64,000 nucleotides of DNA from Dehalococcoidia bacterium (GCA_965219875.1 CBDCOW010000001.1:604062-668061), one strand, 5' to 3'; positions 19,182-50,067 are shown, counted from the first letter of the stretch. Translations and numbers: made by a program. The notes: generated from the letters alone by a model not told the origin.

Positions 19182-19985
19182 ATGGGAAAGCTTGATGGAA
19201 AGGTAGCCATCGTCACCGGTGGCGGCGGATGGCTCGGTTGCGGGATCGTGTTGGCGCTGGCGAAAGAAGGGGCGAAGGTCGCGATAGCGGATATCGACGA
19301 GAAGGCCGCGGCGTCCGTTGCCGAACAGGTGCGGAAGCTCGGAGGGGATTCCCTCGCCGCGCCCTGCGACGTGGCCGACAACGATCAAGTGAAGAGGATG
19401 GTTGGCGAGGTCGCAGGGCAGCTTGGGCCCCCGCGCATCCTCGTGAACGCGGCACAGAGCTGGGACATGGCGACGCCAACCCACGAGGGGTGGTCGACCA
19501 TCGAGTCCGTGACCGAGCAACAGTGGGACGCCTTCTACCAGTCCGGGATGAAGTCGACCTTGTACTGCTGCCGGGCCGTGCTCCCATATATGAAGGACGG
19601 CGGCGGTAAGATCGTCAACTTCGGCTCGATCACCGGCCTCGAAGGGTGGGAAGGGACCGCCGACTATAACGTGACGAAGGAGGCGGTCCGAGGCTTCAGC
19701 CGAACGGCGGCCCGAGAGTGGGGCAAATATCAGATCAACGTGAACGTCATCTGCCCGTCGGCGCTGACGCCGTCGAAGATCGAAGCGGCTTTCGGCAGGG
19801 ACTCCCAACAGGCAAAGGGCAGGAGGAAGTTCATAGAGGACTGGACGGCGAAGCTTCCCTTGCGTCGAGTTGGGGACCCGGAGAGAGACATCGGCCGCGC
19901 CGTCGTTTTCCTCGCCAGCGAGGACTCCGATTTCATCACCGGCCAAACACTCAACGTGGATGGCGGCGCCCATATGCCGAGCTGA
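19182..19985 (+). CDS. SDR-family oxidoreductase
   Basis: TGGGGWLG Rossmann motif, YxxxK catalytic pair; ATG 19182 with GGAG RBS. Confidence 0.8.
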   Translation: MGKLDGKVAIVTGGGGWLGCGIVLALAKEGAKVAIADIDEKAAASVAEQVRKLGGDSLAAPCDVADNDQVKRMVGEVAGQLGPPRILVNAAQSWDMATPTHEGWSTIESVTEQQWDAFYQSGMKSTLYCCRAVLPYMKDGGGKIVNFGSITGLEGWEGTADYNVTKEAVRGFSRTAAREWGKYQINVNVICPSALTPSKIEAAFGRDSQQAKGRRKFIEDWTAKLPLRRVGDPERDIGRAVVFLASEDSDFITGQTLNVDGGAHMPS

Positions 19986-19986
19986 G

Positions 19987-20889
19987 CTAGAGCTGTCGCA
20001 GACTCGGGTCCAGCGCGTCGCGGAGCCAGTCGCCCAGCATGTTGAAGGACACCACGACGAGCATGATCGCGATGCCGGGGAAGATGGACATCCACCACAG
20101 GGTGTCGATGAAGTTGCGCCCATCGGACACCATGCCTCCCCAACTTGGGGTTGGCGGCGGGACTCCGACTCCGAGGAAGCTGAGCGATGCGATCGCAAGT
20201 ATGGCCCACCCGACTTGAAGGGTCGAAAGCACGACGATGCTGTTCAGCACGTTGGGCAACAGGTGCACGAAGATGATGCGGGTCGATGAAGCCCCGGCGA
20301 CGCGGGCAAGGGCCACGAAGTCCCGTTGCTTCCATGACAGTACGTCGCCTCTGATCAACCTCGCGTAGCGCGCCCAGAGGATGATGCTCAACACCGTCAC
20401 CACCATCCAATAGCCGGGGCCCAGCGTCAACGCCAGGGTGAGGCCTATCAGGATACCGGGGATCGCGAGCCAGACGTCGACGGTCCGCATGATGAGCGCA
20501 TCGACCCATCCCCCACGATATCCGGCGATCAGTCCCAGGGCGGTGCCGACGAGTCCCCCGAGCAGGATCGAGAGGAAGGCGATGGATAGGGAGGTGCGAC
20601 TCCCGACGATGATCCGCGACAGGATGTCCCGGCCCTGGCGGTCGGTGCCCAGCAGATTGGTGAAACTCCCGTCCTCGGTCCACGCCGGCGGCAGCTCCCG
20701 GGCGACCAGGTCCGTTCTGGTCGCGTTGTGCGGGGCGATCCATGACGACAAGATGGCCACTACCAAGATGACGAGGAGGATTCCTCCGGGCACCTTGGGA
20801 ACGGACTTCAACCCGCCGAGGGCCCTGCGCCAGTCCCCCAGCACCGCCGAGAGCGGCCGATTGACGATCGAGTCTTCTGTTCCGGTCAC
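19987..20889 (-). CDS. ABC transporter permease (DppC/OppC-like)
   Basis: 300 aa, 6 TM, EAA-like loop; Dpp/Opp family. Confidence 0.8.
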   Translation of the reverse strand: MTGTEDSIVNRPLSAVLGDWRRALGGLKSVPKVPGGILLVILVVAILSSWIAPHNATRTDLVARELPPAWTEDGSFTNLLGTDRQGRDILSRIIVGSRTSLSIAFLSILLGGLVGTALGLIAGYRGGWVDALIMRTVDVWLAIPGILIGLTLALTLGPGYWMVVTVLSIILWARYARLIRGDVLSWKQRDFVALARVAGASSTRIIFVHLLPNVLNSIVVLSTLQVGWAILAIASLSFLGVGVPPPTPSWGGMVSDGRNFIDTLWWMSIFPGIAIMLVVVSFNMLGDWLRDALDPSLRQL

Positions 20890-21800
20890 ACCCTAATCCG
20901 CGGGTCCAAGAGGACGTACAGAATGTCGACAAGGAAGTTGATGGCGATGACGAGCGCGATCCAGGTGAGCACGACGATTTGGAGCAACGGAAAATCTCTG
21001 AAGAGCACCGCTTCATATGCGAGACGTCCGAGACCCGGCCAGGCGAACACGACCTCGATGGTCACCGCGGCGCCCACGATGATCCCATACATGAATCCGA
21101 TGAAAGTTACGACCGGGATCAACGCGTTGCGAAAGGCGTGCTTCAACACGACTTTGTACTCTTTGACTCCCTTGAGACGCGCCAGCCGCATGAATTCTTG
21201 ATCGAGCACTTCGAGCATGCTGGAGCGGAGCAATCGCACGATGCCCGCGCTGGAAAACCATCCCAATGCCAGGGCGGGCAGGATGTAGTGCGTCCAACCG
21301 CCAATTCCGGCCGCGGGCGCCCATCCCAGCGCGACGGAAAACAGCAGCACGAAGAGGATTGCCATGAAGAAGGCGGGCACGGACTGGCCTATCAGCGCCA
21401 CGCCCGTGGCCAGCCGGTCCCAGAAACGACCCCGGTTGACCGCGGCCACCACGCCCAGAGGGATACCGATTCCGACGGCTACCAGCATCGCGGCCGACGC
21501 CAGCTTGAGGGAGTTGCCCAGCCGGTTGGGGACAAGCTCGCTTGCGGGGCGCAGGGTACGCAGCGACGTGCCGAAATCTCCCCGCACGGCATCCTTGAGA
21601 TAGACCCAGTACTGATACAGCACGTGCCGGTCCAGGCCTTTGGCCTCAATGAGCGCCTCCCGCTCCTCCGCCGTCGCTTCGATGGGAAGGATCAGATCGA
21701 CCGGATTCCCAGTGATGCGTGCGAGGAGGAAGATCACGAGGCTGGCCACGAAGAGGGCCACGACCGCCTGGATAAGACGGCTGAGTACGAACCGGATCAT
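20886..21800 (-). CDS. ABC transporter permease (DppB/OppB-like)
   Basis: 304 aa, N-terminal MIRFVLSRLIQAVVALFV typical of DppB. Confidence 0.8.
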   Translation of the reverse strand: MIRFVLSRLIQAVVALFVASLVIFLLARITGNPVDLILPIEATAEEREALIEAKGLDRHVLYQYWVYLKDAVRGDFGTSLRTLRPASELVPNRLGNSLKLASAAMLVAVGIGIPLGVVAAVNRGRFWDRLATGVALIGQSVPAFFMAILFVLLFSVALGWAPAAGIGGWTHYILPALALGWFSSAGIVRLLRSSMLEVLDQEFMRLARLKGVKEYKVVLKHAFRNALIPVVTFIGFMYGIIVGAAVTIEVVFAWPGLGRLAYEAVLFRDFPLLQIVVLTWIALVIAINFLVDILYVLLDPRIRV

Positions 21801-21953: not shown

Positions 21954-22832
21954 CTAGCGAGGGTTCTTCTTCTTGAAGTCCTCGGCGATCTCGTTGAACG
22001 TGACGAACTTCGCCCCCGGGTGGCTCTGGACGTAGGCAATGACCCGTTCCAGCATGAGGAGTACCTGAGGCCGTCCGCTGACGTCCGGATGGATCGTGAA
22101 GGTGAAAATGGCGTCGTCGTACTCGCGGTAGACCCAGTCGAACTGGTCGCGCCAGAGTTGCTCGATGTCGCGGGGGTTTACCCAGCCGTGGCTGTTCGCC
22201 GCCTTCTTGATGAACATCATCGGCGGTAGATCGTCCAGGTACCAACTCCCGGGGATCTCGACAATGTCCGTCTCCTGCCCGCGGACCAGCGGCTTCATCC
22301 ACGTCTCGGCTGGCTGCGAGTAGTCGATCTTGGTCCAGGTGTCCCCTACCCGCGCGTAGTAACACTCATGATCGGTGTGCGACAGGCTGTGGTCGTAGGT
22401 GAAGCCGTACTTCTGGAGCAGTCCGATGGTGGCGTTGCTCACTTCCCACCATGGCGCCACGTAGCCCGTCGGCGATTCTCCGGTGTACTTCTTGATGAGG
22501 TCGATGCACTTGACGAGAATCGCCTCTTCCTGCTCCGGAGACATGGCGAGGGGGTTCTCATGGGAATACCCATGCACGCCGATTTCGTGGCCCCCCTCGA
22601 CCATCATCTCGGTCTGGCGAGGGAAGGTCTCGATCGAGTGCCCGGGTGGGAACCAGGTCGTCTTGATCCCAAAATTGTCGAAGAGCTTGAGGAGCCGTGG
22701 CGTCCCGATCTCTCCGGCGAACATACCCTGGGAGATGTCGAAGGGCGAGTCCTCCCCTCCATACGAGCCGAGCTTTCCTGCAACCGCGTCCACGTCGATC
22801 CCGAATGCGCACAGAATCTGCTTCTCAGCCAT
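21954..22832 (-). CDS. polysaccharide deacetylase family protein (PuuE/allantoinase-like)
   Basis: NodB-like His motifs (HGYSHE); start MMAEKQ with AAGGAGG RBS. Confidence 0.65.
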
Positions 22833-22857
22833 CATGGCCTCCTTTTCAGCTTCACGG

Positions 22858-24384
22858 TCATGCTTTCTGTTCGCCCCGAACGGCGACCGGCGGATGGGCA
22901 TCATGCCATCCCGTGGCCCGCTCATAGGCGTTGGCAGCCTGGAGAAGGGTGACCTCGTCGAACGGGCTGCCCATCAACTGGAAGCCGATGGGCAGCCCAC
23001 CTCCCGAGAACCCGCACGGCAGGCTTATCGACGGATATCCGGTTAGGTTTCCCACCCTGTTGAGCCGTCCCAGGGCGTTTAGGACGGGGAGTTGCGCGCC
23101 CCCGGCCTGTACGTCCGTCTCCCCGCGCCTCGGCGCGACGACGACGGTGGTCGCGAAAGCCAGGACGTGCACGTCCCGCAGCGCGCTGAGGACTTCCCGG
23201 GTCAGCGCGGACCGTGCCTTCTGGGCCCCGATATAGTCCGAGGCGGTAACGTCCCCGCCGGCGGCGAGCCGGGGCCTCATCCGCGGGTCGATCTCTTCGG
23301 CATGAGCCTCAAGGAGAGCTCCATGCGACGCGAACGCCTCTGCCCCCATCAGAGTCGCAGCCAGATCGATGGCCGTTGGGAGCGACGGGATGGAGACCTC
23401 CACGATCGCTGCGCCGAGGCCTGCGAGGGTGTCGATGGCCGCCCTCACGGCTGTCTCGACCTCGGGGTCGAGGGTGTCCCACACAAACTCACGGGGCACG
23501 CCGACTCGGAGCCCCGTCGCGCCGCCCTCGAGGCCGGTGGTGAAGTCAGGCGCCGGCAGGTCGGCCGAGGTCGGGTCCTGGGGATCGTAGCCGGCGAGGG
23601 CGTTCAGCACGAGGGCCGAGTCCGCCACCGTCCGGGCGAAGATGCTGACGTGGTCGAGCGACCAGCACAGTTGGGTCGTACCCCGCTGGCTGATGCGCCC
23701 ATAGTTCGGCTTGAGGCCGACCAACCCGCAGAGCGACGCGGGGATGCGCCCGGAGCCTCCCGTATCGGTGCCCAGGGCCGCCGCGCACCCTCCCGCCGCG
23801 GTCGCGGCCGCCGAGCCTCCGCTCGAGCCCCCGCTCATCAGCTCCGGGGCCCAGGGGTTGCACGAGTCGCCATAGTGGGCGTTCTCACCGGTGGCCCCGA
23901 AGGCGAGCTCGTTCATGTTGAGCTTACCCACGATAACCGCGCCCGCGTCCTTGAGCCTTGCCACCGAAGAGGCGTCCTCATTCGGGACGTGGTGGGCCCA
24001 GACCGTCGTGCCGGACGTGGTGCGAAGGCCCTTGGTGGCGAACAGGTCCTTCAGCCCGACGGGTATTCCATGGAGCGGGCCGCGATACTCGCCGCGGGAG
24101 ATCGCCCGCTCGGCTTCCCTGGCCGCCGCTTTGGCCTCATCTCGGGCTACGGTGATGAAGGCGTTGAGGGTCTCTTCCAGCGCGTCGATGCGTTCCAGGT
24201 GGGCGTCCACGAGCTCCACTGGGGACAACTCGCGTCTCTCGATCAGAGATGAGAGCTCTGTGATGGGACGAAGGCACAGGGCTTGATGTCGTATCGGCGC
24301 CCCTCGCTTCGGCCTGCCCGTATCGGAAAGGGAGACCTTCTGACAGAGGGCGGCATGGTACTGTGCGGCTCCGCGGCTTGTCAA
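22858..24384 (-). CDS. amidase (amidase-signature family); N-terminal start uncertain
   Basis: [12 protein letters not shown]-signature, Ser-cisSer-Lys context; ORF-track Met likely too far upstream. Confidence 0.75.
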
Positions 24385-24458: not shown

Positions 24459-25499
24459 TTGCCGGGCTCCGGCGGCGACGCCAGAGCAGAAAGGCGGTGT
24501 CGGACGAAGGCGAGGATAGGGCTGTGCATGGGCAACTGGCTGCCCGCCGAACTCCTTCGGCAGGCAGCCCGGTCCGCGGAGAGACAGGGCTACGAGATCT
24601 TCTGGCTCACCGAGTCGTCAACCGGCATGGGCAAGGACGTGTCGTCCCAGCTAGCCTCCGTTGCCCTCGGCACCTCAACCATCCGCGTGGGGACGGGCAT
24701 CATGCCCATCTATACCCGGACTCCCACCTTGATCGCCGAGGTTGCGACAAGCCTTGACGAGATCTCCGGAGGGCGGTTTACGCTCGGCCTCGGGGCAGGC
24801 CACGGCAACAACCTGGCGACGGCCCACGGGGTCACGGTCGAGCGCCCGCTTTGGAGAATGCGGGAGTGCGTGGCAATTCTTCGAGAGGCTCTGAGCACCG
24901 GACACGCCACATTCCACGGCGAGATCTTCGACATCCCGGACCTGGAGCTGCTGCTACCCAACCCGGACCGGCGGCCGCCAATCTACATAGGCGTCCTCAG
25001 ACCGGGTCTGGCCCAGCTCGCTGGCGAAATCGCCGATGGGGTGATTCTGAACATGGTCACCCCCGACTACCTCCAAGAGGTGGTCCCGCTGGTCCGGGCC
25101 GCCGCCGAGCGGGCGGGCCGCGAGCCCGACGAAGTGGACATCGCCTGCCTCGTCTTGGCCTGCGCCGACGACCGGGAAGCAGAGCGCGTGTGCAGCGAAC
25201 GGATCGCGAACTATCACACGATGCCGTTCTACCAGGAGCACATGAAGCGCAGCGGCTTCGCGGCCGAGGTCGAAGCCATCGTGGCCGGGCTGCGCCGAGG
25301 AGGTCTCGCGGAGGGTGCCAGAGCGGTATCTCCACGAATGCTGGAGACGCTGGCTCTCGTTGGCGACCCGAAGAGTTGGCCTGAGAAAATCAACCGATAC
25401 CGCGAGGCGGGGATCGGCCTGCCGTGCCTGTTCCTCTTTCCTGCCGAGAATGACGAAGCTGGATCGGTCCTCAGAGGAGTCGAGGCGCTCCAGGGCTGA
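24459..25499 (+). CDS. LLM-class flavin/F420-dependent oxidoreductase (alternative start 24528)
   Basis: paralogue of 45039..46031 (RIGLCMGNW vs TGLCIGNW). Confidence 0.7.
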   Translation: MPGSGGDARAERRCRTKARIGLCMGNWLPAELLRQAARSAERQGYEIFWLTESSTGMGKDVSSQLASVALGTSTIRVGTGIMPIYTRTPTLIAEVATSLDEISGGRFTLGLGAGHGNNLATAHGVTVERPLWRMRECVAILREALSTGHATFHGEIFDIPDLELLLPNPDRRPPIYIGVLRPGLAQLAGEIADGVILNMVTPDYLQEVVPLVRAAAERAGREPDEVDIACLVLACADDREAERVCSERIANYHTMPFYQEHMKRSGFAAEVEAIVAGLRRGGLAEGARAVSPRMLETLALVGDPKSWPEKINRYREAGIGLPCLFLFPAENDEAGSVLRGVEALQG

Positions 25500-26645
25500 T
25501 CAGACCTCGAACTTGAGCAAGCGCACCGCGTTCTCGGACGTGACCTTGTATCTGTCCTCGTCGGGGACTCCCGTGAAGATCCTGTCGAGATACTCCATCG
25601 ACTTGGGCCACGTGGCCTCCGAGTGCGGATAGTCGTTGCCCCAGACCATGTTCTCTACTCCGATGATGTCGCGAAGCCGTTGCACCCCAACGTGGTCCTC
25701 GAGGAACGTGGCAAACATGTTCTCGTGCCAGTAGTCGCTGGGGATCATGCCCCGCTTCGAACGCCAGCCCCTGCCGTAGAAACCCCGCTCCTTGTACGTC
25801 TCGTCGAGCCTGGCGAGCCAGTAGGGGATCCACGACAGCTCGTGCTCTCCGGCGCACATCTTCAGGCCGGGGTAGCGGTCGAAGACGCCGGCGAAGATCA
25901 TCGCGCCGAGCGAGTAGCGGACCCAGTAGTCGTGGTTGGACCTCCCGGCCGGGGTGTACTCGCTAAAGTCGGTCGTCTGCTCCAAACCGGGGATGCCATG
26001 CCGGACGTAGCCGCTATGCATGATGAGGGGCATCTCGAGGTGAGCGGCAGTCCACCAAAGACGGTCGTAGATGGGGTGGCGGTAGGGTCTGTCGGGAAGG
26101 GGATAGACCGGGATGAGAGCCCCGGTGAGCCCCAGCTCCGCGCATCGCTCCAGGTCTTCGCATGCGTCGTCGACATCGTCAACGTTGATGAAGCCCGGCG
26201 CCTTGAGCCGACCTGGGTACGGCTTGATGAAGTCAGCGATGGCTTCGGTATACGCCCGGCAGATGGCGGTGAGGAGCTTACTATCCTCGATCCGGGTGAA
26301 GCAGGCCCCGATGCTCGAGTAGATGTACGCGCCCCAGACCCCGTCCTCCTCCAGGTCCTTGACCATCTCGTGGGGGTCGTATGCTCCCTTGCGCACGTCT
26401 TCCCACGTGGCGACGAAGTCGATCCGGGACGGGTCCTCGAACCGGAGCGCGGTCTGAGTAAAGGCCCCGAGAGTAATCAACTCCTGCCCATCGAGAAACC
26501 AGGCATCGTACTCTCTGCCCTGGGCATTCTCGGACCGCACTAGCCGGGGGGCCCGTTCTCGGAACGCCGGCTCGATCCGATCGATATAGGTGTCCGGCGG
26601 CTCCACGATATGGGTGTCGCACGAAATGATTTTGTAGTCAGGCAT
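25500..26645 (-). CDS. amidohydrolase-2 (ACMSD-like TIM-barrel metal hydrolase)
   Basis: CDTHIVEPPD HxH-type motif near N-terminus; start MPDYKIISCDTH. Confidence 0.7.
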   Translation of the reverse strand: MPDYKIISCDTHIVEPPDTYIDRIEPAFRERAPRLVRSENAQGREYDAWFLDGQELITLGAFTQTALRFEDPSRIDFVATWEDVRKGAYDPHEMVKDLEEDGVWGAYIYSSIGACFTRIEDSKLLTAICRAYTEAIADFIKPYPGRLKAPGFINVDDVDDACEDLERCAELGLTGALIPVYPLPDRPYRHPIYDRLWWTAAHLEMPLIMHSGYVRHGIPGLEQTTDFSEYTPAGRSNHDYWVRYSLGAMIFAGVFDRYPGLKMCAGEHELSWIPYWLARLDETYKERGFYGRGWRSKRGMIPSDYWHENMFATFLEDHVGVQRLRDIIGVENMVWGNDYPHSEATWPKSMEYLDRIFTGVPDEDRYKVTSENAVRLLKFEV

Positions 26646-26713: not shown

Positions 26714-28087
26714 TCATTCACCCAAGGCGCGGACCGCCGGACCGGTCGCCAGGGCCATTGCATCAACGACGCTGTCGAGGTCGTCCATCTTCAGGACCAG
26801 ATCGCGGAGGCGGTCGCAGTCCTCGGGGGAGAGCACCCGCAGGGCATTGTCGCGGTACTTCCGCGCGATCTCGTCCAGGCTGAGCGGGTCGCCCCACTCG
26901 CCGTGCGCCACGTCGACCTGTTCCCGTAGCTCGCACCCGTTTTTCAAACGGATGGTGACCGGGTTTGAAGCATCGCGATATTGGGACGACATCGATGGAT
27001 CGACGACGAGCTCGACTCTCTCTGCCATGGCCCGGGCCTCGGCCGATGACACCTCGGTGTCGTCGAAGCTCTCAATACCGACCTGCCGGTGCAGGATCGC
27101 CTCTGCCACGTTGTGCTGAAGGCTGACCTTGGCGGCGAGCCCGTCCTGGGGGCGAGGCAGGTTCATCCATCCCGCGTTGGGTACCGTCACCGTCACGTGC
27201 TCGACTTGCTCGGGTCTGATGTCATGTTCCAGGACAAGCTTCAGGACCGCGTCGACCCCACGGACGTTCCGATGACAGGTGGGATAGCCCTTGATCGCGA
27301 TGCCCGGATCAACGACATGAAATGGGCGTCCCAGCCCGCGCGTTGTGATCTCCGGGTCGAACCGGTCCAGGCCCATGAATTCGTCGGCCAAGCCGAGCGC
27401 TCCTTCGATTGGCTCCGGTGTGGCCGTCCAGCCGGCGCGAGCGAGCACGGCGGCCCGAACGCCGCCGCCGGCGGCGTTCCCCGCGTGATAGGGCTTCGTC
27501 ATCGTCCCCGTGTTTTTTTTGATTCCGCCCGCGTGAGAGGCGGCGATGCCCAGGGCCATGCGCGTCTGCCACGGATCAAGACCGAGGAGCTTTGCCGAGG
27601 CGGCGGCGGCTCCGATCACGCCGTAGACGCCGACGCTCGAGCCTCTCGCCGGCCCTTCCTGAAGGCCATAGCCATAGGCGACCTTGCCGTGGACCTCGAG
27701 ACCGATCACGAAGGCCTCAATGACCTTCCTCCCCGGCAGCTCCAGCTTCTCGGCGAGGGCGAAGACCGCGGGGAAGATGCTGCAGACGGGATGGCCTACG
27801 GGGAGGGCCGTCGCATCGAAGTCGAGGGCGTTGGCGAGGACCCCGTTGGCAAAGGCCGCGTTGGCGGCGCCGGTCCGATAGCCTCCGGCGATGACCCCGG
27901 CGTCGGGCGTTCCCCCTTCGCCCCGGGTATAGTCGATCACGAGTTGACCGACGGGTTGCGTCGCTCCCGCCAGGGCGACGCCGAAGGTGTCCAGCATCAC
28001 TTCTTTGCTAACGCGGATGGCTTCGGGCGGCAGGTCTTCGTAGCCGGTGCCGGCAATCCATTCAGCGATGGCTTCGGTGACGCTCAT
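26714..28087 (-). CDS. MmgE/PrpD family protein
   Basis: 457 aa; family length and pattern; 4-nt overlap with upstream gene. Confidence 0.75.
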   Translation of the reverse strand: MSVTEAIAEWIAGTGYEDLPPEAIRVSKEVMLDTFGVALAGATQPVGQLVIDYTRGEGGTPDAGVIAGGYRTGAANAAFANGVLANALDFDATALPVGHPVCSIFPAVFALAEKLELPGRKVIEAFVIGLEVHGKVAYGYGLQEGPARGSSVGVYGVIGAAAASAKLLGLDPWQTRMALGIAASHAGGIKKNTGTMTKPYHAGNAAGGGVRAAVLARAGWTATPEPIEGALGLADEFMGLDRFDPEITTRGLGRPFHVVDPGIAIKGYPTCHRNVRGVDAVLKLVLEHDIRPEQVEHVTVTVPNAGWMNLPRPQDGLAAKVSLQHNVAEAILHRQVGIESFDDTEVSSAEARAMAERVELVVDPSMSSQYRDASNPVTIRLKNGCELREQVDVAHGEWGDPLSLDEIARKYRDNALRVLSPEDCDRLRDLVLKMDDLDSVVDAMALATGPAVRALGE

Positions 28088-31377: not shown

Positions 31378-31390
31378 CACTTGCCCCGCA

Positions 31391-32670: not shown

Positions 32671-32860
32671 CCTGCTCCCGTCGTGACCTCGGGCTGAAGT
32701 TACCCGCACGCCACCCGGCTGTCAATTCCGGACAGCATGCTGGCCCCGCGTACGTTGACAGCGGCCAACGTGGAACCTAGCCTTGGGCCACCCCACCACG
32801 GGCTCCTTGTAGCGCCCTCTGGCCCGAGTTGGGATTGTCGCAAGGGAGAGGAGAACCGCT

Positions 32861-36222: not shown

Positions 36223-36366
36223 CCCTGCCCCGCGAGGCAGTGGGCGAACGTTGACTGCGTGCTGAGACGGAGCTTAGTCTGGGCAGCGCCCGCTACGGGC
36301 GCTGCCCAGTAACGTTACAGGCCCGGGTGCTTCGGTCTCGCTTGTCCGTCGCGCCCGGAAGGAGGA

Positions 36367-41891: not shown

Positions 41892-42290
41892 ATGGAAAAA
41901 GAGGTCATCTTCACCAAAGGCGCGGCCGTTCCGATCTTCAAGATCGCGCACGCGGTCCGTTGGGGCGACCTGGTCTTCACCTCGGGCCACGTCCCGCGAA
42001 ACCCCGAAGACGGCGTCTTCGTGGGCGGCGATATTCAGAACCAGACCCGGCGAGTGTTCAAGACCCTTGCCTCGGTGCTCGAAGCGAGCGATAGCAGCTT
42101 GGACAACGTCATCAAAGCGACGGTATACCTGCGTCACATCGAAGACCGTCTCGGGTTCAACGAGGTGTGGCACGAGCACTATTCCGACGCGGCGAACTGT
42201 CCGGCACGCACCACGATCAAAGCGGGGGACCTGGCGCCTGGGGTGGGGGACATCGAGATCGAGGTCATCGCCCACGTCAACCAGGCGTAG
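41892..42290 (+). CDS. RidA/YjgF family enamine/imine deaminase
   Basis: 132 aa with YjgF signature region. Confidence 0.8.
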   Translation: MEKEVIFTKGAAVPIFKIAHAVRWGDLVFTSGHVPRNPEDGVFVGGDIQNQTRRVFKTLASVLEASDSSLDNVIKATVYLRHIEDRLGFNEVWHEHYSDAANCPARTTIKAGDLAPGVGDIEIEVIAHVNQA

Positions 42291-42326: not shown

Positions 42327-43124
42327 ATGGCCGGACAGAGCGCGCTATTCGACAAGCAGGTTGCCCTCGTGACCGGCGCCCACCGGGGGATCGGCAAGGC
42401 CATCGCCTTGCAACTCGCCGGCCAGGGCGCCAGGACCGTGGTGAACGACCTCGAGCCGGAGGGCATCAGCGGCGTTGCCGACGAGATCAACGGCGCGGGC
42501 GGCGACGCGCGCGCCGTGGCCGCGGACATCGCGACCGAGGACGGCGCGCGGCGTCTCGTCGACACCGCACTCTCGGCTTTCGGCGGGGTGGACATCCTGG
42601 TCAACAACGCCGGCGTCCTGACGCGCGGGCCGCTGCTGGACCTCCAGGACGCCGACTGGGAGGAGCAGTTCCGCGTCAACGTCAAGGGCCCCCTGCTCTG
42701 CTCCCAGGCCGCGTTCCCGATCATGGAGAAGGGCGGCCGCGGAGGGCGCATCGTCAACATCGCCTCGACCGCCGCACGGATTCCCAGGTATCACCTGGCC
42801 GCCTACTCGGCTTCCAAAGCGGCGCTGGTGCAGCTCACCAAGGTGATGGCTCTGGAGTTCGCCGGCGCGAGAGTCACCGTCAACGCCGTCTCCCCCGGTC
42901 CGACCGAAACGGAGATGGCCCTTGGCTCGTTCGGGGGCGGCGACTCCAGCAAGATGGACGAGGTAGTCAAGGGGAATCTCCAGGAGTATCGCTTGGGGAT
43001 TCCACTGGGACGCCTGCTGACACCGGATGAGATCGCGAGTGCGGTGGTCTTCCTGGCGTCGCCCGGGGCGTCGGGAATCACCGGCCAGGCCCTGTACGTG
43101 GACGGCGGCCAGGAGATGCTCTAG
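42327..43124 (+). CDS. SDR-family oxidoreductase
   Basis: VTGAHRGIG motif, YSASK. Confidence 0.8.
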   Translation: MAGQSALFDKQVALVTGAHRGIGKAIALQLAGQGARTVVNDLEPEGISGVADEINGAGGDARAVAADIATEDGARRLVDTALSAFGGVDILVNNAGVLTRGPLLDLQDADWEEQFRVNVKGPLLCSQAAFPIMEKGGRGGRIVNIASTAARIPRYHLAAYSASKAALVQLTKVMALEFAGARVTVNAVSPGPTETEMALGSFGGGDSSKMDEVVKGNLQEYRLGIPLGRLLTPDEIASAVVFLASPGASGITGQALYVDGGQEML

Positions 43125-43136: not shown

Positions 43137-44057
43137 ATGAACGCCCTCAAGGACAAGGTGGCGATCGTCACCGGCGCGGGACGGGGCATCGGCAGGGGCA
43201 TTGCCCTCTTCTTTGCCCGGGAAGGGGCTGCGGTTGTCGTCAACGATCTCGGCACGGCCGTCGACGGCCCCGGCTCGTCCATGGAGCCCGCGGACCGGGT
43301 TGTCGAAGAGATCGCCAACGCCGGCGGCCGCGCCGCCGCCAATCATGACACGGCGGCCACGATGACGGGCGCGGAGCGCATCGTCGACACGGCGGTCGCG
43401 GCCTTCGGCAAGCTCGACGTGGTCGTGACCTGCCACGGGATCCTGCGTGACCGCATGCTGTTCAACATGACTGAGGAGGAGTGGGACGCGGTCGTTGCGA
43501 CGCACCTGAAGGGGACCTTTGCGGTGTGCAAGTACGCCGCGACGGTGTTTCAGAGGCAGCGGTCGGGGAGGATCATCACCTTCAGCGCCGAATCGGGCCT
43601 CTTCGGCAACTCCGGACAGGCCAACCACGGCGCCGCGACTTCGGCCGTGGCCGGCTTTACAAAGGCGATCTCTCGTGAGCTGGAGTCTTTCGGCGGCACC
43701 GCCAACTGCGTCGCGCCGAGGGCCGCGACCCGGTTGAGCGCCACCGTCTCTCAGGCGCACCGAGCCGTCCGTTCCGAGCGAAGCATCGATCAGGCCGAGC
43801 AGCCTGCCGAATTGGCCCCCGAGGACATCGCTCCGTTCGTGGCCTATCTCGCCGGCGACTTGACCGCCAACGTGAACGGGCAGACCTTCCTCGTCCATGG
43901 CAAGACAATCTCCCTGGTCTCTCAACCAAGGATCGTCGAGACGCGGTACAAAGAGCACGGTTTCTGGAGCCTTAAGGAGCTGCGGAGCGTCTTGCCGGAG
44001 TTGCTGGACAAACGAACGGCAAACCCAGCTCCGGCGCAACGGAAGGCCGGCGCATGA
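43137..44057 (+). CDS. SDR-family oxidoreductase (C-terminally extended)
   Basis: VTGAGRGIGRG motif. Confidence 0.75.
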   Translation: MNALKDKVAIVTGAGRGIGRGIALFFAREGAAVVVNDLGTAVDGPGSSMEPADRVVEEIANAGGRAAANHDTAATMTGAERIVDTAVAAFGKLDVVVTCHGILRDRMLFNMTEEEWDAVVATHLKGTFAVCKYAATVFQRQRSGRIITFSAESGLFGNSGQANHGAATSAVAGFTKAISRELESFGGTANCVAPRAATRLSATVSQAHRAVRSERSIDQAEQPAELAPEDIAPFVAYLAGDLTANVNGQTFLVHGKTISLVSQPRIVETRYKEHGFWSLKELRSVLPELLDKRTANPAPAQRKAGA

Positions 44058-45034
44058 CCCGCGATACGACAAAGCTGCTGGAGGGGAAGGTCGGGATCGT
44101 CACCGGCGCCGGCCGGGGCATAGGGAGAAGCGTCGCCAAAGCGCTGGCGGAGCAGGGCGCCCGCGTCGTCGTCAACGACCTGGGCGGAGCGGTCCAGGGC
44201 ACCTCCGAGTCGAGCAGCGCCGCGGCGGATGAAGTCGTGGCGGAGATCGAAGCCGGCGGTGGCGTCGCCGTGGCCAACTACGAATCGGTGGCCACGATGG
44301 AGGGAGGCGAGAGCATCGTCAGGACCGCGGTCGACGCCTTCGGGCGAGTCGATATCCTGGTGACCCCGGCCGGCAACCTCGCCGAGAACACGCTGGTCGA
44401 CATGACTGAAGCGGAGTGGGATGCGGTGATCGCAGTCCACCTGAAGGGCACCTTCACCGTCGCCAAATTCGCCTCGAAGGTGATGCGCGAGCAGCGCTGG
44501 GGCCGCATCATCCCCATTACGTCCGTCGCCGGGCTCTGGGGAAACCGAGGGCAGGCAAACTACGCCGCCGCTAAGGATGGCGTCGCCGGGTTCGCCCGGT
44601 CGATCGCCCGCGACCTGGGATGGTACGGCATCACGGTGAACTGCATTTCCCCGGGAGCGGACACACGGATGATGTCCGCCGTCGCCAAGTCCCCCGAATC
44701 GCGCCACGGCTCGGAGATGGGGGACGGACTGGTACCCACACAGTTCCAGAGGCCGCCCGAGGCCATCGCCCCCGTCGTCGTGTGGCTCGCCTCCGACGAA
44801 GCCGCCAACGTGAATGGACAGATCGTCCACGTGGCCGGGGGGGTCCTGGGTCTCATGAGCCAGCCGGCCGTCGTCCGCGGCATGACCAAGCCGGACGCAC
44901 CCTGGAGCGTCGAGGACATCGCCGCGGTCTTTCCCACGACGCTAGGGGTCGACCTGTCCCCACAGATCCTGTGGGGGGGCTGGCGCCCGCCCATCGCGGC
45001 GCCTCCGGGCACCTGGGGAAAGGGCTGGTACTAG
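44054..45034 (+). CDS. SDR-family oxidoreductase (C-terminally extended), paralogue of preceding gene
   Basis: VTGAGRGIGRS motif, YAAAK; 4-nt overlap with upstream gene. Confidence 0.75.
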   Translation: MTRDTTKLLEGKVGIVTGAGRGIGRSVAKALAEQGARVVVNDLGGAVQGTSESSSAAADEVVAEIEAGGGVAVANYESVATMEGGESIVRTAVDAFGRVDILVTPAGNLAENTLVDMTEAEWDAVIAVHLKGTFTVAKFASKVMREQRWGRIIPITSVAGLWGNRGQANYAAAKDGVAGFARSIARDLGWYGITVNCISPGADTRMMSAVAKSPESRHGSEMGDGLVPTQFQRPPEAIAPVVVWLASDEAANVNGQIVHVAGGVLGLMSQPAVVRGMTKPDAPWSVEDIAAVFPTTLGVDLSPQILWGGWRPPIAAPPGTWGKGWY

Positions 45035-45038: not shown

Positions 45039-46031
45039 GTGCCGCGGACGGGGCTTTGCATCGGCAACTGGGCGCCCGTCGAGCTCGTCCAGGAGGCTGC
45101 GAGGCTAGCCGAGGCGCGGGGTTACGACACGCTCTGGATGACCGAGTCGTCCACGGGGATCGGCAAGGATGCCCCTTCCCAGCTCGCCGCCGCGGCGCTG
45201 GCAACGACAGACATTCGCCTCGGTACCGCCGTTCTCCCTATCTATACCCGGACTCCGACGCTCCTGGCCCAAGTGGCGACGAGCATGGACGAGATCTCGG
45301 AAGGCCGCTTCGTATTGGGCCTTGGGAGCAGCCACGGGCCGAACATGCTCGCCCACCATGGCGTCGCCCACGAGCGGCCCTTCCAGCGGATGCGCGAGTG
45401 CGTCGCCATCCTGCGCGATGCGTTGGGGACGGGGGAGGCGAGCTTCGAGGGGGAGATCTTCAGCATCCCCAGCCTCGAACTGCTGCGGCCAAGACCGGAG
45501 CGTCGCGTTCCAGTCTATCTCGCCGCACTGGCGCCAAAGATGACCAATTTCGCCGCCACGGCGGCGGACGGGGTGATCCTCAACATGACCACCCCCGAGC
45601 ACCTCGGCGAAGCCGTCCCACGGATGAGGGATGCGGCGGCCCAGGCGGGCCGGGACCCCGACGCCTTCGACGTTGCGTGCCTGGTGTTGGCGTCCGCCGA
45701 CGGCGCCCGCGCCGAGGAGGTCTGCAGCCTCCAGATCGCGTTCTACTTGCGCATGCCCTTCTACCAGAGCCATCTCAGGCGCGGCGGGTTCGCGCCCGAG
45801 GTCGACGGTATCCTCAAAGGACTCGAGCGCGGCGGTGTTGAAGAGGGCGCCAGAGCGGTGTCGGCCCGAATGCTCGACAGCCTGGCGCTGGCCGGCAGCC
45901 CCGGCCGCTGGGATGAGCGGCTCCAGCGCTACCGCGACGCGGGCGTCGACCTGCCCTGTCCGTTCTTCTTCCAGCAGGAAGGCGATCTGAGGACGCCGCT
46001 GCTCGAGGGAATCGCCGCTCTGGACGGCTAG
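45039..46031 (+). CDS. LLM-class flavin/F420-dependent oxidoreductase
   Basis: paralogue of 24459..25499 (collinear identity along whole length). Confidence 0.75.
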   Translation: MPRTGLCIGNWAPVELVQEAARLAEARGYDTLWMTESSTGIGKDAPSQLAAAALATTDIRLGTAVLPIYTRTPTLLAQVATSMDEISEGRFVLGLGSSHGPNMLAHHGVAHERPFQRMRECVAILRDALGTGEASFEGEIFSIPSLELLRPRPERRVPVYLAALAPKMTNFAATAADGVILNMTTPEHLGEAVPRMRDAAAQAGRDPDAFDVACLVLASADGARAEEVCSLQIAFYLRMPFYQSHLRRGGFAPEVDGILKGLERGGVEEGARAVSARMLDSLALAGSPGRWDERLQRYRDAGVDLPCPFFFQQEGDLRTPLLEGIAALDG

Positions 46032-47323
46032 CCGACGGCGCCGCGGCAGACCGCCTCCACCTCGGCGTCGTTCAGCATCACGGGGAACTTGTTGCCCAGG
46101 GCCTCGAGCTGCACGAGAAGGGCTTCATAGGCCTTTTGCACAGCGGCGCTGTCGCTCCGCAGGCCCATTTGCTTGAGCTTTGCCTCGACCGTCCTGGTGC
46201 TGAGCCCAAGGTTGGTCATGAGCAGGTTAGGACGCGCTCCAACCAGTTCAGGCTCGTAAGGCGTCTTGACGCCGAGGTCCTTGAAACTCTTCCCGTTCAC
46301 CATGCCGATATAGGTGTCCGGCAACCCCGATGCCGTCTGGAACGGTCCGGTGATCGCCTTGTATGGAGGGTTCACTATGCCGGTGATCCTCTCGATGGTA
46401 TGAGAGAGTTTCGGCAATTTGCGCAGGTCGACACCGGTGTGGATCCCGTACTGGAGCTCGAGCGACACGACGACCTCTTCGAGGCTGGCGAAGCCCATGT
46501 CGGCGAGGCCGTTCACGGACACCTCTGGGCAGGCCCCCGCGGAGGTCGCCGCCAACGCCTGCGCCGTGGCAGTGCCGAAACAGTCGTGAACGTGATAGAA
46601 GATCGGGATGTCCTTCTTGAGGCCGGCGCGGATCTGCGACACGAAGTACCGGGTGGCGTCGGGGGTCGCGATCCCTTTGGAGTCGGACATCAGCAGGCTC
46701 TCAGCACCCAGATCGATGTAGTGGTTCTGCCGCGCGATCGCTGTTGGGAAGTCCTCTGGACCGCCCACGTAGACGAACCCCACGCATACCGGAAGTCCCT
46801 TCTTCCTCGCGTAGTCGATGGCGTCGGGAAGCTCGTCCACCGGCTCCTCGGCAGCGCCGTTGCCCTTCGCCTGCGCCAAGACCTTCGGCAGGGAGGCGGA
46901 AAGACCGATGGAGTCCGCCCCATAGTCGGCCATCTTGTCGATGCGGGATTTGTACTCGCCGGGTGCCCACGTCCCGAAGTGGCCCCACGTCCGCACCTTG
47001 ATCTTCAACCCCAGCTTGGTGACGCCGCGGACCGCTTCCCAGACACGGGTCTCTTTCGGTGCGCCGGTGTACTGGTCCGTCAAGAACACCGTCTCCGGGA
47101 TGCCTATCTCGTCGAGCTGTCGGGCGATCTCCTGGTACTCTTCGACCGAGTACAGGCGTGTGCCTTCCAGATGGTCCATCTTGACAAGCGTGAAGTCCTG
47201 GATGAAGACAGGCTCCCGAAAGTTGTACTGGTCCCGCACCTCGGGGATGAAGTTATAGCGGCTCGTCTCGTAGAGCTCGCCTTCCCATGGCGTTCCGTTC
47301 GTGTCCATTAGGGCCCCCTCCAT
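46028..47323 (-). CDS. divergent DRE-TIM (HMGL-like) metallolyase, paralogue 3 of 3
   Basis: IFYHVHDCFGTATAQALAATSAGAC; collinear with the other two paralogues. Confidence 0.55.
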   Translation of the reverse strand: MEGALMDTNGTPWEGELYETSRYNFIPEVRDQYNFREPVFIQDFTLVKMDHLEGTRLYSVEEYQEIARQLDEIGIPETVFLTDQYTGAPKETRVWEAVRGVTKLGLKIKVRTWGHFGTWAPGEYKSRIDKMADYGADSIGLSASLPKVLAQAKGNGAAEEPVDELPDAIDYARKKGLPVCVGFVYVGGPEDFPTAIARQNHYIDLGAESLLMSDSKGIATPDATRYFVSQIRAGLKKDIPIFYHVHDCFGTATAQALAATSAGACPEVSVNGLADMGFASLEEVVVSLELQYGIHTGVDLRKLPKLSHTIERITGIVNPPYKAITGPFQTASGLPDTYIGMVNGKSFKDLGVKTPYEPELVGARPNLLMTNLGLSTRTVEAKLKQMGLRSDSAAVQKAYEALLVQLEALGNKFPVMLNDAEVEAVCRGAVG

Positions 47324-47636: not shown

Positions 47637-47712
<76 letters not shown>

Positions 47713-47746: not shown

Positions 47747-47828
47747 GGGGAAGTGTCGGAATTGGCAGACGAGCATGATTTAGGATCATGTGCCGAAAGG
47801 CGTAGGAGTTCGAGTCTCCTCTTCCCCA
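47747..47828 (+). tRNA. tRNA-Leu (anticodon TAG), long variable arm, CCA not encoded
   Basis: acceptor GGGGAAG/CTTCCCC, anticodon loop TTTAGGA, long variable arm, T-loop TTCGAGT. Confidence 0.75.
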
Positions 47829-47947
47829 CTTCCAAAAAAATCCACACGCCGAGCACGTTACGCGCGAACATGGTATAAGGTAAGGTGGGTCGGGCGGGTC
47901 GCCGAATGCACCCGCCGGCAGATTAGGTCCAGGCGAGGAGGTCGGAA

Positions 47948-49024
47948 GTGGCCGACAACGAAGCCGCAGGCGCCGTCGAAGACGTCGCCGCAGAAGCTGC
48001 GACCGGTTCCAACGGAGCGTCGTCCGATTCCAACGAGTTCCTTCTCGACGTCCAGGATCTCAGGACCTACTTCTACACGCACACCGGCGTCGTCAAAGCC
48101 GTCGATGGCGTGGACTGGAACCTGAAGGAAGGCGAGACCCTCGCCCTCGTAGGCGAAAGCGGCTCGGGCAAGAGCGTGAGCGCCCTTTCCGTGATGCGCC
48201 TGATTCCGGAGCCGCCGGGCAAGATCGTCAGCGGTAAGATCCTGTTCCAGGGCAAGGACATGGTCCAGATGCCGGCGGATCAGATCCGGAAGATCCGGGG
48301 CAACCAGATCTCGATGGTCTTCCAGGAGCCCATGACCTCGTTGAACCCGGTGTTGACTATCAGCCGCCAGCTCACCGAGACTTTGGAGCTGCACCTGGAC
48401 TTGGACAAGAGAGCCGCCAAGGACCGCGCCATCGAGCTGCTCGACATCGTCGGTATTCCCGACGCGGGCCGACGGGTCGACGACTATCCCCACCAGTTCA
48501 GCGGCGGCATGCGCCAGCGCGTGATGATCGCTATGGCGCTGTCGTGCGACCCCAAGCTGATCATCGCCGACGAGCCCACGACGGCGCTCGACGTGACGAT
48601 TCAGGCGCAGGTGCTCGAGGTCATCAACGAGCTCGCGCAGCAGTTCAACACCTCGATCATGATCATCACCCACAACCTGGGCGTCGTGGCCCGCCACGCC
48701 GACCGGGTGAACGTGATGTACGCGGGGCACATCGTGGAGACCTCCACAGCGTTGAAGGTCTACGGCGACCCCCACCATCCCTACACCGAGGGCCTGCTGC
48801 AGTCGGTGCCGCGCCTCGACGAGACGGTCAGGCAGCGGCTGGTGCCTATCGAAGGGCAGCCGCCCGACCTCTCGAACCTGCCCGTGGGCTGCCCCTTCCA
48901 GCCCCGCTGCCGCTACGCGTTCGACCGATGTAAGGAAGAGAACCCGCCCCTGATCCCCGTGGCCGATGACCACTGGACCGCCTGCTGGTACGACATGAAG
49001 GAAGGAAAGCCGAGGGCCGTATGA
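47948..49024 (+). CDS. ABC transporter ATP-binding protein (DppD/OppD-like), second ATPase pair
   Basis: Walker A GESGSGKS, signature FSGGMRQR, Walker B IIADEP. Confidence 0.8.
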
Positions 49025-50067
49025 CGCAGGAAGCCGCTACCCAAGCCGCCGCACAAGACACCGCCGCCAACGGCGGCCGGACCGCCGCCCACGGCGAACT
49101 CCTGCTTGAGGTCCGCAACCTCAAGATGTACTTCCCTGTGACCCAGGGGATCGTCTTCCAGCGGAAGGTCGCCGATATCAAAGCCGTAGACGACGTCAGT
49201 TTCCACATCAACCGCGGCGAGACCTTGGGCCTCGTCGGCGAGAGCGGCTGCGGCAAGACCACCACGGGCAGGGCCATCCTCCAGCTCTACCAGCCCACCG
49301 ACGGCTCGGTGGTCTACGATGGCCGCGACCTCACCGCGATGCGACCGTCCGAGATGCGGCCGATGCGGCAGCGGATGCAGATCATCTTCCAAGACCCCTA
49401 CGGCTCCCTGAACCCCCGCATGACCGCGGGCGGCATCATCGGCGAGCCGCTGGTCATTCACAACCTGGCATCCACCAAGGAAGAGCGCAACGCGCGGGTT
49501 GAAGAACTGCTCACCATTGTGGGGCTCAACCCCCACATGAAAGACCGCTACCCCCATGAGTTCTCCGGCGGCCAGCGCCAGCGCATCGGGGTCGCCCGGG
49601 CGCTCGCGGTGCAGCCCGACCTGATCGTCTGCGACGAGCCGGTCTCGGCGCTCGACGTCTCGATTCAAGCCCAGATCATCAACCTTCTGGAAGAGCTCCA
49701 GGAGCAGTTCGGCCTGACCTACCTGTTCATCGCCCACGACCTCGCCGTTGTCCGTCACATCAGCGACCGCATCGCCGTCATGTACCTCGGCAAGGTCATG
49801 GAGCTTGCCGACCGCAACGAGCTCTACGAGAACCCGCTGCACCCCTACACCAAGGCGCTGCTCTCCGCCGTCCCGGTTCCCGACCCGGTGGTCGAGGCCA
49901 AGCGCGAGCGCATCGTCCTGCAAGGCGACGTGCCGAGCCCGCTCAACCCGCCCACCGGTTGCGTCTTCCACACGCGCTGCCCCATCGCCATCGACGTCTG
50001 CAAGGCGGAGATACCGGAGTGGCGCGAGATGGCCAAGGACCACTTCGTCGCCTGCCACCGCGTCTAG
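49021..50067 (+). CDS. ABC transporter ATP-binding protein (DppF/OppF-like)
   Basis: Walker [10 protein letters not shown], signature FSGGQRQR. Confidence 0.8.

Follow-up and report, generated by a model that had tools for sequence, protein, structure and literature searches.

A mosaic Dehalococcoidia gene cluster combines a Dpp-type importer, three divergent homocitrate-synthase-like paralogues and a hydantoinase-like cassette

Within a stretch of 64,000 nucleotides from a Dehalococcoidia bacterium (GCA_965219875.1 CBDCOW010000001.1:604062-668061), referred to here in its full length as the window, positions 19182-47323 are occupied by a locus in which the genes of a Dpp/Opp-type ATP-binding cassette (ABC) importer are interleaved with those of numerous enzymes. 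Comparison with related contigs shows the locus to be a mosaic of two independently conserved modules. One of these, module A, comprises the importer and an accompanying set of enzymes that includes three divergent homocitrate-synthase-like TIM-barrel paralogues (A, B and C); the other, cassette B, is a unit of five genes encoding a thiamine pyrophosphate (TPP)-dependent enzyme, HyuB- and HyuA-type subunits, a RidA-family protein and a short-chain dehydrogenase/reductase (SDR3). We somewhat favour the interpretation that the two modules together constitute a cluster for uptake and breakdown, with a second pair of transporter ATPase genes standing beside it as an orphan. Chloroflexota of the class Dehalococcoidia are widespread in soils and sediments, mostly uncultured and with a poorly known diet, and catabolic clusters linked to importers are a familiar type of locus, many of which occur in Chloroflexota genomes. 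What is new here is the conserved triple homocitrate-synthase-like set with an altered catalytic signature, its tie to a Dpp-type importer, and the presence of a candidate amidohydrolase-related dinuclear oxygenase (ARO) in this setting.

Genes in the window (~65% G+C) were called from third-position G+C and then annotated with Pfam, and enzymes were compared at the equivalog level with the curated cut-offs of NCBIfam. Related contigs were fetched for their content of homologues and compared by tblastn and through precomputed Pfam gene calls; the labels L003-L007, L016, L100 and L101 denote contigs of this kind, drawn from five other metagenomic lineages. In these contigs 22 of the 25 protein genes are again found in the company of other cluster genes (Table 1), the exceptions being the luciferase-like monooxygenase (LLM) gene LLM1 and the second ATPase pair, and the identities of 45-81% exclude an origin of the related contigs from the same strain. 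The window itself matches a contig of an ENA metagenome assembly at 99.9% identity over 22855-44168, and in a search of 185,579 species-representative genomes the HMGL-like proteins had close homologues only in two metagenome-assembled genomes, both labelled Dehalococcoidia bacterium, at 48-71% identity, which points to an uncultured Chloroflexota of that class as the most likely source.

Module A recurs with rearrangements at 45-77% identity, most clearly in L003/L005/L006/L007 and in L004. In the former, with orthologues at 49-77% identity, one arm carries paralogue C, LLM2, SDR5, SDR4 and two genes for substrate-binding proteins (SBPs), and the divergent arm carries SDR2, DppD, DppF, paralogue A, the PrpD-like protein, the candidate ARO, the amidase, DppB and DppC, followed by a convergent SDR1 gene and an NTF2-like gene, with paralogue B nearby; no TPP, Hyu, RidA or SDR3 genes are present in L003/L005-L007, the closest syntenic lineage. 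L004 contains four TIM-barrel paralogues, PrpD, one ATPase, SDR2, two SBPs, LLM2, DppBC and the deacetylase, and it too has no Hyu, TPP or RidA genes. A minimal unit is found in L016, in the order SBP-TIM barrel-AMDase-DppBCDF. L100 and L101 both carry an intact cassette B, at 69-81% identity; it is accompanied in L100 by SBP, SDR4, SDR5 and paralogue C, and it stands in L101 without the importer core, beside four CoA-transferase and two MaoC genes and between transposases. Since module A is thus found without cassette B and cassette B without the importer, the locus is a mosaic and not one unit. We note signs of decay in two of the related contigs, where a fragmented second ARO copy (123, 93 and 81 aa) lies upstream of the intact gene in L005 (12799-13940) and the PrpD-like gene is split in two in L004 (1-1356).

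An earlier description of this DNA, made from the sequence only, had treated 19.2-50.1 kb as a single catabolic supercluster of 31 kb, dedicated to one N-heterocyclic or amide-rich substrate and with ring opening by the hydantoinase as its key step, a reading that we now consider unlikely. The joining of cassette B to SBP, SDR4, SDR5 and paralogue C in L100, a second lineage, is in its favour, but module A persists without cassette B in L003/L005-L007 and L004, the reverse holds in L101, and the second ATPase pair never accompanies the cluster. The sequence-only reading had itself named synteny as the comparison that could expose unrelated neighbours, and most of the genes proved to be co-conserved in other Dehalococcoidia contigs. 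This co-conservation extends to module A and to cassette B separately, but neither to the second ATPase pair nor to the 31-kb block as one unit; in place of a supercluster we see a mosaic of ~28 kb, and in place of hydantoinase ring opening its conserved centre is the importer together with the three divergent homocitrate-synthase-like paralogues. The opposite explanation, that unrelated enzyme and transporter genes have come to lie side by side by chance in a genome rich in both, is extremely improbable. The flanks of the window do carry further LLM, SnoaL, tautomerase, beta-lactamase-fold, M20 and MFS genes, as expected if enzyme density is genome-wide, but chance would not account for the recurrence of so many of the same neighbours in independent contigs, nor for the overlap of several gene pairs, which indicates translational coupling.

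By Pfam the list of importer parts is complete, with SBP_bac_5, two permeases and two oligo_HPY ATPases encoded together, as they also are in L004, L005 and L016. SBP-dependent ABC systems are importers; the presence of an SBP-dependent transporter therefore implies uptake, and the catabolic role proposed earlier is reasonable on this ground. The SBP is a lipoprotein, as had been claimed, with a VAAC lipobox (Cys25) and a Gly/Pro/Ala-rich linker. An ABC set scattered in four places had also been described, and all of these parts are found, but the second ATPase pair is unlinked and leaves three co-conserved places; the 'split' system is one importer spread over two divergent arms. It resembles other Dpp/Opp-type importers in its full set of parts, including OppC_N, BPD_transp_1_N and the oligo_HPY tail of the ATPases, and differs from them in that the parts occupy three places on two divergent arms with enzyme genes interleaved, and in that its SBP is distant from any SBP of known ligand, the closest solved relatives (HbpA, AccA, DppA and NikA) matching only at ~1e-25. 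Imperfect tandem repeats of an 18-nt unit (34491-34715) code for the linker and give rise to a spurious Pfam 'Collagen' match. The second ATPase pair is just 48% and 54% identical to the first, which ends at 31437 and not at 31377 as previously given. The second pair was present in no related locus, none of these having a better match to it than to the first pair, and it is probably a separate orphan pair outside the conserved unit. Paralogue C is the right-hand boundary of that unit; the two tRNAs embedded between it and the second ATPase pair, now confirmed, are a boundary marker and lie outside it.

The three TIM-barrel proteins are 54-58% identical among themselves, and each falls in its own orthologous clade with proteins of other lineages, so that the triplication predates these lineages. 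Membership in the HMGL-like TIM-barrel fold is well above the PF00682 gathering cut-off of 29, at 60-92 bits. The AlphaFold2 model of paralogue B (pLDDT 88) has the homocitrate synthase 6ktq as its best fold match, at 21% identity, followed by 6e1j, 3ivs and 3rmj, also homocitrate or isopropylmalate synthases, and a profile of the family matches 6ktq at 4e-36. The NCBIfam models for homocitrate, isopropylmalate and citramalate synthases reach at best ~97-130 bits against cut-offs of ~460-600. The family is rare, with 349 members among 1.84 billion representative proteins at E<=1e-30. A scan of JGI metagenomes with the TIM-barrel alignment returned 80 loci and added nothing to the synteny; among the best 40 of the 80, all readable motifs were those of canonical T-L-R-[DE]-G-E synthases, except in L020.

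The catalytic signature of these proteins is altered. The canonical T-L-R-[DE]-G-E-Q is replaced by T-x-x-K-x-D-H, and G-E-R-x-G-N by A-D-R-G-F-A; the more distant members of the family read D-S-T-L-R-K, which anchors the alignment of the motif. Across the aligned family the first His of H-x-H never varies, and the pair reads H-V-H in paralogues B and C. Paralogue A has D-W-T-P-L-K where T-L-R-[DE] is canonical and H-A-R where H-x-H is canonical, the latter shared by all of its orthologues, including the clade members P0008, P0012 and P0013. In comparison with the Claisen-condensing DRE-TIM metallolyases (homocitrate, 2-isopropylmalate, citramalate and methylthioalkylmalate synthases), the paralogues share the fold, the HMGL-like domain, the first His of H-x-H and a C-terminal helical subdomain, but they are only ~20% identical and carry Lys in place of the acidic ligand and Ala, Leu or Val in place of the Arg. 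The earlier naming of three DRE-TIM paralogues therefore stands as regards the number of genes and the HMGL-like fold, but the defining Arg and the acidic metal ligand are replaced. Among the distant members of the D-S-T-L-R-K clade, P0173 and P0195 carry a C-terminal OHCU-decarboxylase domain (PF09349, 4e-32), a fusion suggestive of ureides or tertiary hydroxy acids as the compounds acted on. Other distant members of the family adjoin creatininase, AllG and Amidohydro_1 genes; a look-up of names for distant members gave only automatic 'citramalate synthase' labels.

Another unusual component of module A is the Amidohydro_2 protein, previously listed as an amidohydrolase-2. The Pfam family name holds, but a hydrolase is not what the motifs suggest. 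Its best solved relatives are PtmU3 (6omp, 1.6e-41) and DitZ (8uyr, 4.8e-34), and its 381-aa product has both an N-terminal D-x-H motif (D-T-H, residues 10-12) and a C-terminal D-Y-P-H-S-E motif, the last position being Glu as in PtmU3; both motifs are present in 120 of the 120 closest homologues. AROs are recognised by an N-terminal D-x-H together with a C-terminal D-x-P-H-x-D/E motif, and the latter is reported to be absent from the characterised hydrolases and decarboxylases of PF04909 (PMC13154177). Judged from these motifs, the protein is probably an ARO-type C-H hydroxylase. It shares with PtmU3, DitZ, SfbO and AibH1H2 the PF04909 fold, the closest solved relatives and both signature motifs, and it differs in having no adjacent Rieske ferredoxin and in its setting within an importer operon and not a terpenoid cluster. 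Homologues with ~60% identity are widespread in soil Alphaproteobacteria and Rokubacteria, and in the loci examined a Rieske ferredoxin of ~100 aa lies directly 3' of them (L011/L012 11246-11566, L013 11163-11471), a further point in favour of the ARO assignment.

The MmgE/PrpD-family protein contains both Pfam domains of that family and matches cis-aconitate decarboxylase (CAD, IRG1) at 1.1e-52 and iminodisuccinate (IDS) epimerase at 4.3e-51. Its identification as the 2-methylcitrate dehydratase PrpD is ruled out, the score against the PrpD equivalog being 43.8 bits with a cut-off of 458 and the match to the solved 2-methylcitrate dehydratase only 7e-4. It differs from CAD and IDS epimerase in that its gene overlaps that of TIM-barrel paralogue A by 4 nt, a pairing that, to our knowledge, has not been described for either enzyme. 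These affinities raise the alternative of a biosynthetic cluster, making a specialised metabolite such as an alkylcitrate- or itaconate-like acid that is tailored by an oxygenase and reductases. The TIM barrels are nearest to homocitrate, isopropylmalate and methylthioalkylmalate synthases, the PrpD-like protein to CAD and the candidate ARO to PtmU3 of platensimycin biosynthesis, and among characterised proteins the TPP enzyme is closest, after BbmA, to acetolactate synthase. A biosynthetic role is nevertheless very unlikely, because a complete SBP-dependent importer is interleaved with the enzymes and in L016 is nearly the sole partner of the TIM-barrel gene, because Pfam finds no exporter, polyketide synthase, non-ribosomal peptide synthetase or terpene synthase in the cluster, and because an amidase and a deacetylase suit breakdown better than synthesis.

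The families listed by the sequence-only reading for 19.2-50.1 kb are all present by Pfam at essentially the positions it gave, with some starts off by a few bases. This includes the five SDRs, the three HMGL-like genes, the two LLMs inside the region with a third outside it (12901-14049), and the overlap of the hyuB stop and hyuA start, where ATGGCGCTTAG is read at 39780-39790. Only one of two claimed NTF2-like genes lies inside the region, and the remaining SnoaL_4 genes, at 10162, 14075 and 60307, are all outside. Overlaps and short gaps define seven transcription units. The leftward operon runs from 32670 down to 25500 in the order SDR2-NTF2-DppD-DppF-paralogue A-PrpD-like-ARO, and a second leftward unit from 24219 down to 19987 in the order amidase-deacetylase-DppB-DppC. 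The rightward arm is SBP-TPP-HyuB-HyuA-RidA-SDR3-SDR4-SDR5-LLM2; at its head stands paralogue B as a unit of its own, its gene separated from that of the SBP by a 245-nt gap with a promoter-like site. SDR1, LLM1 and paralogue C are three separate units on the opposite strand. Within the arms, the overlaps and gaps of <=43 nt point to operons.

Table 1. Features of the locus and its right-hand neighbours, with the identity of orthologues in related contigs.
Feature	Position	Strand	Basis and remarks	Orthologues
SDR1	19182..19985	+	Pfam adh_short_C2, 1.2e-52; module A, convergent with permease genes	68% L005, same convergent position
DppC-like permease	19987..20889	-	Pfam BPD_transp_1 and OppC_N; module A	77% L005, 66% L004
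DppB-like permease	20886..21800	-	Pfam BPD_transp_1 and BPD_transp_1_N; module A; 4-nt overlap with DppC	73% L005, 71% L004
NodB/PuuE-like polysaccharide-deacetylase-family protein	21954..22838	-	Pfam Polysacc_deac_1, 1.3e-19	67% L004 (294 aa); gene missing from L005
Amidase-signature enzyme	22858..24219	-	Pfam Amidase, 1.6e-121; module A	65% L005
LLM1	24528..25499	+	Pfam Bac_luciferase; between two minus-strand units	No separate orthologue in related loci (tblastn)
Candidate ARO	25500..26645	-	Pfam Amidohydro_2; PDB relatives and motifs	75% L005
MmgE/PrpD-family protein	26714..28087	-	Pfam MmgE_PrpD_N and MmgE_PrpD_C	66% L005
TIM-barrel paralogue A	28084..29382	-	Pfam HMGL-like, 60.3 bits; 4-nt overlap with PrpD-like gene	
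DppF-like ATPase of importer	29379..30395	-	Pfam ABC_tran and oligo_HPY	74% L005, 70% L004
DppD-like ATPase of importer	30388..31437	-	Pfam ABC_tran and oligo_HPY	75% L005
NTF2-like (DUF4440/SnoaL) protein	31391..31852	-	Pfam DUF4440, 1.2e-14	Homologue, 49% L005, other position
SDR2	31867..32670	-	Pfam adh_short_C2, 4.4e-62; first gene of leftward operon	69-72% L003, L004, L005, L007, heading same arm
Divergent intergenic region between arms	32671..32860		TGTCAA and TTGACA hexamers, outward-facing, 28 nt apart	
TIM-barrel paralogue B	32861..34168	+	Pfam HMGL-like, 92 bits	71% L003/L006, 70% L004
Lipoprotein SBP_bac_5, SBP of importer	34414..36222	+	Pfam SBP_bac_5, 1.8e-51	60-65% L003, L005, L100
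Perfect hairpin, 12-bp stem, GGGCAGCGCCCG-CTA-CGGGCGCTGCCC	36281..36307	+	3' of SBP gene, no T-run after	
TPP-dependent enzyme, resembling acetolactate synthase and Xsc	36376..38076	+	All three Pfam TPP domains	81% L100, 74% L101
HyuB-type subunit	38120..39790	+	Pfam Hydantoinase_B, 3.6e-147	72% L100, 69% L101
HyuA-type subunit	39780..41882	+	Pfam Hydant_A_N, Hydantoinase_A, Hydant_A_C; start overlaps hyuB stop by 11 nt	
RidA-family protein	41892..42290	+	Pfam Ribonuc_L-PSP	76-78% L100, L101
SDR3	42327..43124	+	Pfam; last gene of cassette B	70-71% L100, L101, after RidA; gene missing from L003-L007
SDR4, PRK07791 type	43137..44057	+	Pfam; ~300 aa; right arm of module A	53% L005, 63% L100
SDR5	44054..45034	+	Pfam; SDR4 paralogue (49% identical)	66% L005, 70% L100
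LLM2	45039..46031	+	Pfam Bac_luciferase	59-63% L003, L004, L005
TIM-barrel paralogue C	46028..47323	-	Pfam HMGL-like, 78.8 bits; convergent with right arm	64% L003/L007, 60% L004, 72% L100, same convergent position
tRNA-Lys(CTT)	47637-47712	+	ARAGORN, Rfam	
tRNA-Leu(TAG)	47747-47829	+	ARAGORN, Rfam	
Second DppD/DppF-like ATPase pair	47948-49024 and 49021-50067	+	Pfam	

Among the remaining enzymes of module A, the amidase carries a GGSSGG motif and scores 343 bits against the AtzE-family model (cut-off 461). The deacetylase, which probably starts at Met30 of a long open reading frame (ORF) beginning at 22925, had been called PuuE-like; it does belong to the Polysacc_deac_1 family, but its likeness to PuuE is weak, at 69.7 bits with a cut-off of 424.6. 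SDR4 scores 268 bits against NCBIfam PRK07791 (cut-off 373). The two LLM proteins are 60% identical and both are probable F420-dependent oxidoreductases of the luciferase-like type, the top NCBIfam matches of LLM1 being all F420-class LLM models, each below its cut-off, and the best solved relatives of LLM2 being F420-dependent Mer enzymes (5e-34).

Cassette B is a portable five-gene module inserted between the SBP gene and SDR4. The best NCBIfam model for its TPP enzyme is sulfoacetaldehyde acetyltransferase, at 474 bits versus 620, and its solved relatives in the PDB are BbmA and then acetolactate synthase. Membership of the next two proteins in the hydantoinase/oxoprolinase A/B family is evident from the three A domains in one protein and Hydantoinase_B in its partner, and HyuA matches N-methylhydantoinase at 1.6e-121 in the PDB, the next chain being deposited as a 5-oxoprolinase and acetone carboxylase lying farther away. 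Caprolactamase CapAB was considered and rejected, since both subunits miss the equivalog cut-off of 1000 (HyuA 525 bits, HyuB 249 bits), and the RidA protein scores 93.3 bits against a Rid subfamily model with a cut-off of 106.25. The A/B architecture in two subunits, the stop-start overlap and the N-methylhydantoinase match are likenesses to HyuAB, N-methylhydantoinase and CapAB; what differs is the fixed cassette of five genes, in which the two subunits are joined by a TPP enzyme, RidA and an SDR, and we know of no characterised Hyu system with this arrangement. The single-substrate supercluster draws its biochemical case from the affinity of HyuA to N-methylhydantoinase, the presence of RidA, the resemblance of the amidase to AtzE and allophanate hydrolase, the faintly PuuE-like deacetylase, and the distant TIM-barrel members fused to OHCU decarboxylase or lying near creatininase, AllG and Amidohydro_1. 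Some of these, namely the HyuA affinity and the distant fusions and neighbours, are weak, indirect hints of an N-heterocyclic or amide-rich substrate, but all of the likenesses to ureide-pathway enzymes are far below the family cut-offs.

In the uptake-and-breakdown cluster that we favour, the importer would take up a small aliphatic compound with carboxylate and amide groups, which we infer to be the substrate. The amidase and deacetylase would strip amide-linked groups, the ARO enzyme would hydroxylate an unactivated carbon, and the SDRs and F420 enzymes would set the oxidation state. The PrpD-like and TIM-barrel proteins would then act on a hydroxy- or oxo-polycarboxylate intermediate, by isomerisation or decarboxylation and by cleavage of its C-C bonds. 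Cassette B would contribute ATP-dependent opening of a cyclic amide; RidA would hydrolyse the enamine or imine that results, and the TPP enzyme would process the 2-oxo acid.

Several observations weigh against this scheme. None of the cluster proteins tested reaches an NCBIfam equivalog cut-off, so every reaction step is presumed from superfamily membership alone. The position of the DRE Arg is occupied by Ala in paralogue B, Leu in A and Val in C and varies across the close family, and the acidic metal-ligand position is an invariant Lys (K43 of paralogue B) in 20 of 20 aligned sequences; the active-site Arg is reported to be invariant and essential in DRE-TIM enzymes (PMC11532901). With both residues replaced, the chemistry of the paralogues may be something other than that of a C-C lyase or synthase. 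A search of the window found no Rieske ferredoxin or other reductase partner for the candidate ARO, and the window contains no CoA ligase or transferase, though relatives of cassette B adjoin such genes. Finally, gene order varies between lineages and pseudogenised copies exist in L005 and L004, so that co-function of all members is not guaranteed.

It is conceivable, though doubtful, that the three paralogues belong to an unrecognised enzyme class that arose from homocitrate-synthase-like TIM barrels, with a Lys-centred site in place of the catalytic Arg and the acidic metal ligand, always coupled to Dpp-type importers and cleaving carboxylate-rich molecules in soil Dehalococcoidia; if this is so, these bacteria would possess a dedicated route for cleaving carboxylate-rich organic molecules. 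The Lys-centred site could reflect a Schiff-base or metal-independent mechanism, and the paralogues might form a hetero-oligomer in which the H-A-R subunit binds no metal. The practical importance of the locus is modest unless the TIM-barrel chemistry proves to be new. It nevertheless supplies testable proteins, among which the SBP is of particular value, as its ligand would name the substrate. The rare homocitrate-synthase-like clade is retained as three distinct paralogues with an altered catalytic signature, and the likely ARO-type C-H hydroxylase extends a recently defined superfamily into Chloroflexota transport operons. More generally, the locus illustrates that what looks like a large 'supercluster' can be a mosaic of portable cassettes, a point to bear in mind wherever neighbourhood is used to infer function. 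In SAR202 and other Chloroflexota, oxidative gene sets rich in paralogues have been proposed to break down recalcitrant organic matter (Landry et al. 2017, PMC5395668). Those sets resemble the present locus in their class-level lineage and in the expansion of luciferase-like oxidoreductase and SDR paralogues in uncultured relatives of the Dehalococcoidia; here, by contrast, it is a divergent HMGL-like TIM barrel, with its tie to Dpp-type importers, that has expanded, and the source appears to be metagenome assemblies and not marine single-amplified genomes.

The statement that the window has no transcription factor is borne out by Pfam, which shows no transcription factor domain in any scanned ORF of the 64 kb; ORFs without a Pfam match lie at 8515-8976, 10945-11553, 11489-12037, 17265-18947, 61952-62524 and 63153-63494. 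It is not, however, a trait of the cluster. About 145 kb of related loci, for which the precomputed Pfam lists may be incomplete, are equally sparse, with at most two such genes outside mobile elements (a MerR gene, and an HTH_3 gene next to a relaxase, transposase HTH domains aside), and the sparseness therefore belongs to these genomes. The 560-aa ORF at 17265-18947 was considered as a hidden regulator or second SBP and discarded, as it has no Pfam, NCBIfam or PDB match; nor is it similar to the 555-aa SBP-like ORF of L004. It lies between the IS/tautomerase genes and SDR1, has a third-position G+C of 0.77 and contains a charged, Glu/Arg/Gln-rich central segment. Rfam detected no riboswitch in the window at gathering thresholds, returning the tRNAs and a DUF3800-VI motif outside the cluster. 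A promoter-like TTGACA-17-TATATT is present upstream of the SBP gene at 34273-34301. A search of the intergenic regions of the cluster and its relatives for 11-mers and for palindromes with 7-nt arms found no shared operator; its only hit was the hairpin at the junction of the SBP gene and cassette B, which may be an mRNA-stabilising or processing element.

To the left of the cluster, at a distance of 2.5 kb, lies an insertion sequence (IS) element (15361-16645) with 54-nt terminal inverted repeats and a DDE_Tnp_1/DUF772 transposase (15552-16628), and two solo copies of its repeat end are found at 14681-14735 and 9831-9882. This element on the left and the tRNAs on the right could mark a genomic island, but the G+C of 0.62-0.69 across the window is not distinctive for the cluster and gives this no support. 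To the right, just downstream of the second ATPase pair, the DUF3800-VI RNA motif (50336-50388; Rfam RF02915, 60.6 bits, gathering score 35) and a DUF3800 gene (50371-51129) overlap at the start of the gene. A repeat resembling repetitive extragenic palindromes, with the hairpin GGGCGCCC-ACAA-GGGGCGCCC, occurs in six intergenic copies, all of which lie beyond the right end of the cluster (50168-50213, 53767-53843, 57197-57242, 58654-58699 and 58820-58865). Farther right, a PurH-like protein of 450 aa (53870-55222) matches the AICARFT_IMPCHas domain only, and the 118 nt between its gene and purM are too few to encode the N-terminal MGS-like IMP cyclohydrolase domain. The sequence of an M20 peptidase is spread over two adjacent ORFs (57266-57574 and 57617-58447), which suggests a frameshift or pseudogene, and on the left an HD-domain gene is apparently split as well (11489-12037 and 12038-12805). 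The left end of the window carries a methionine-salvage set at 774-3919, including a RuBisCO-like protein, an ARD dioxygenase, a class II aldolase and a HAD enzyme, and, at 6-714, rpmH-rnpA-yidD, in which the L34 peptide MPKRTYQPK... is encoded at 577-714 alongside Ribonuclease_P and YidD matches.

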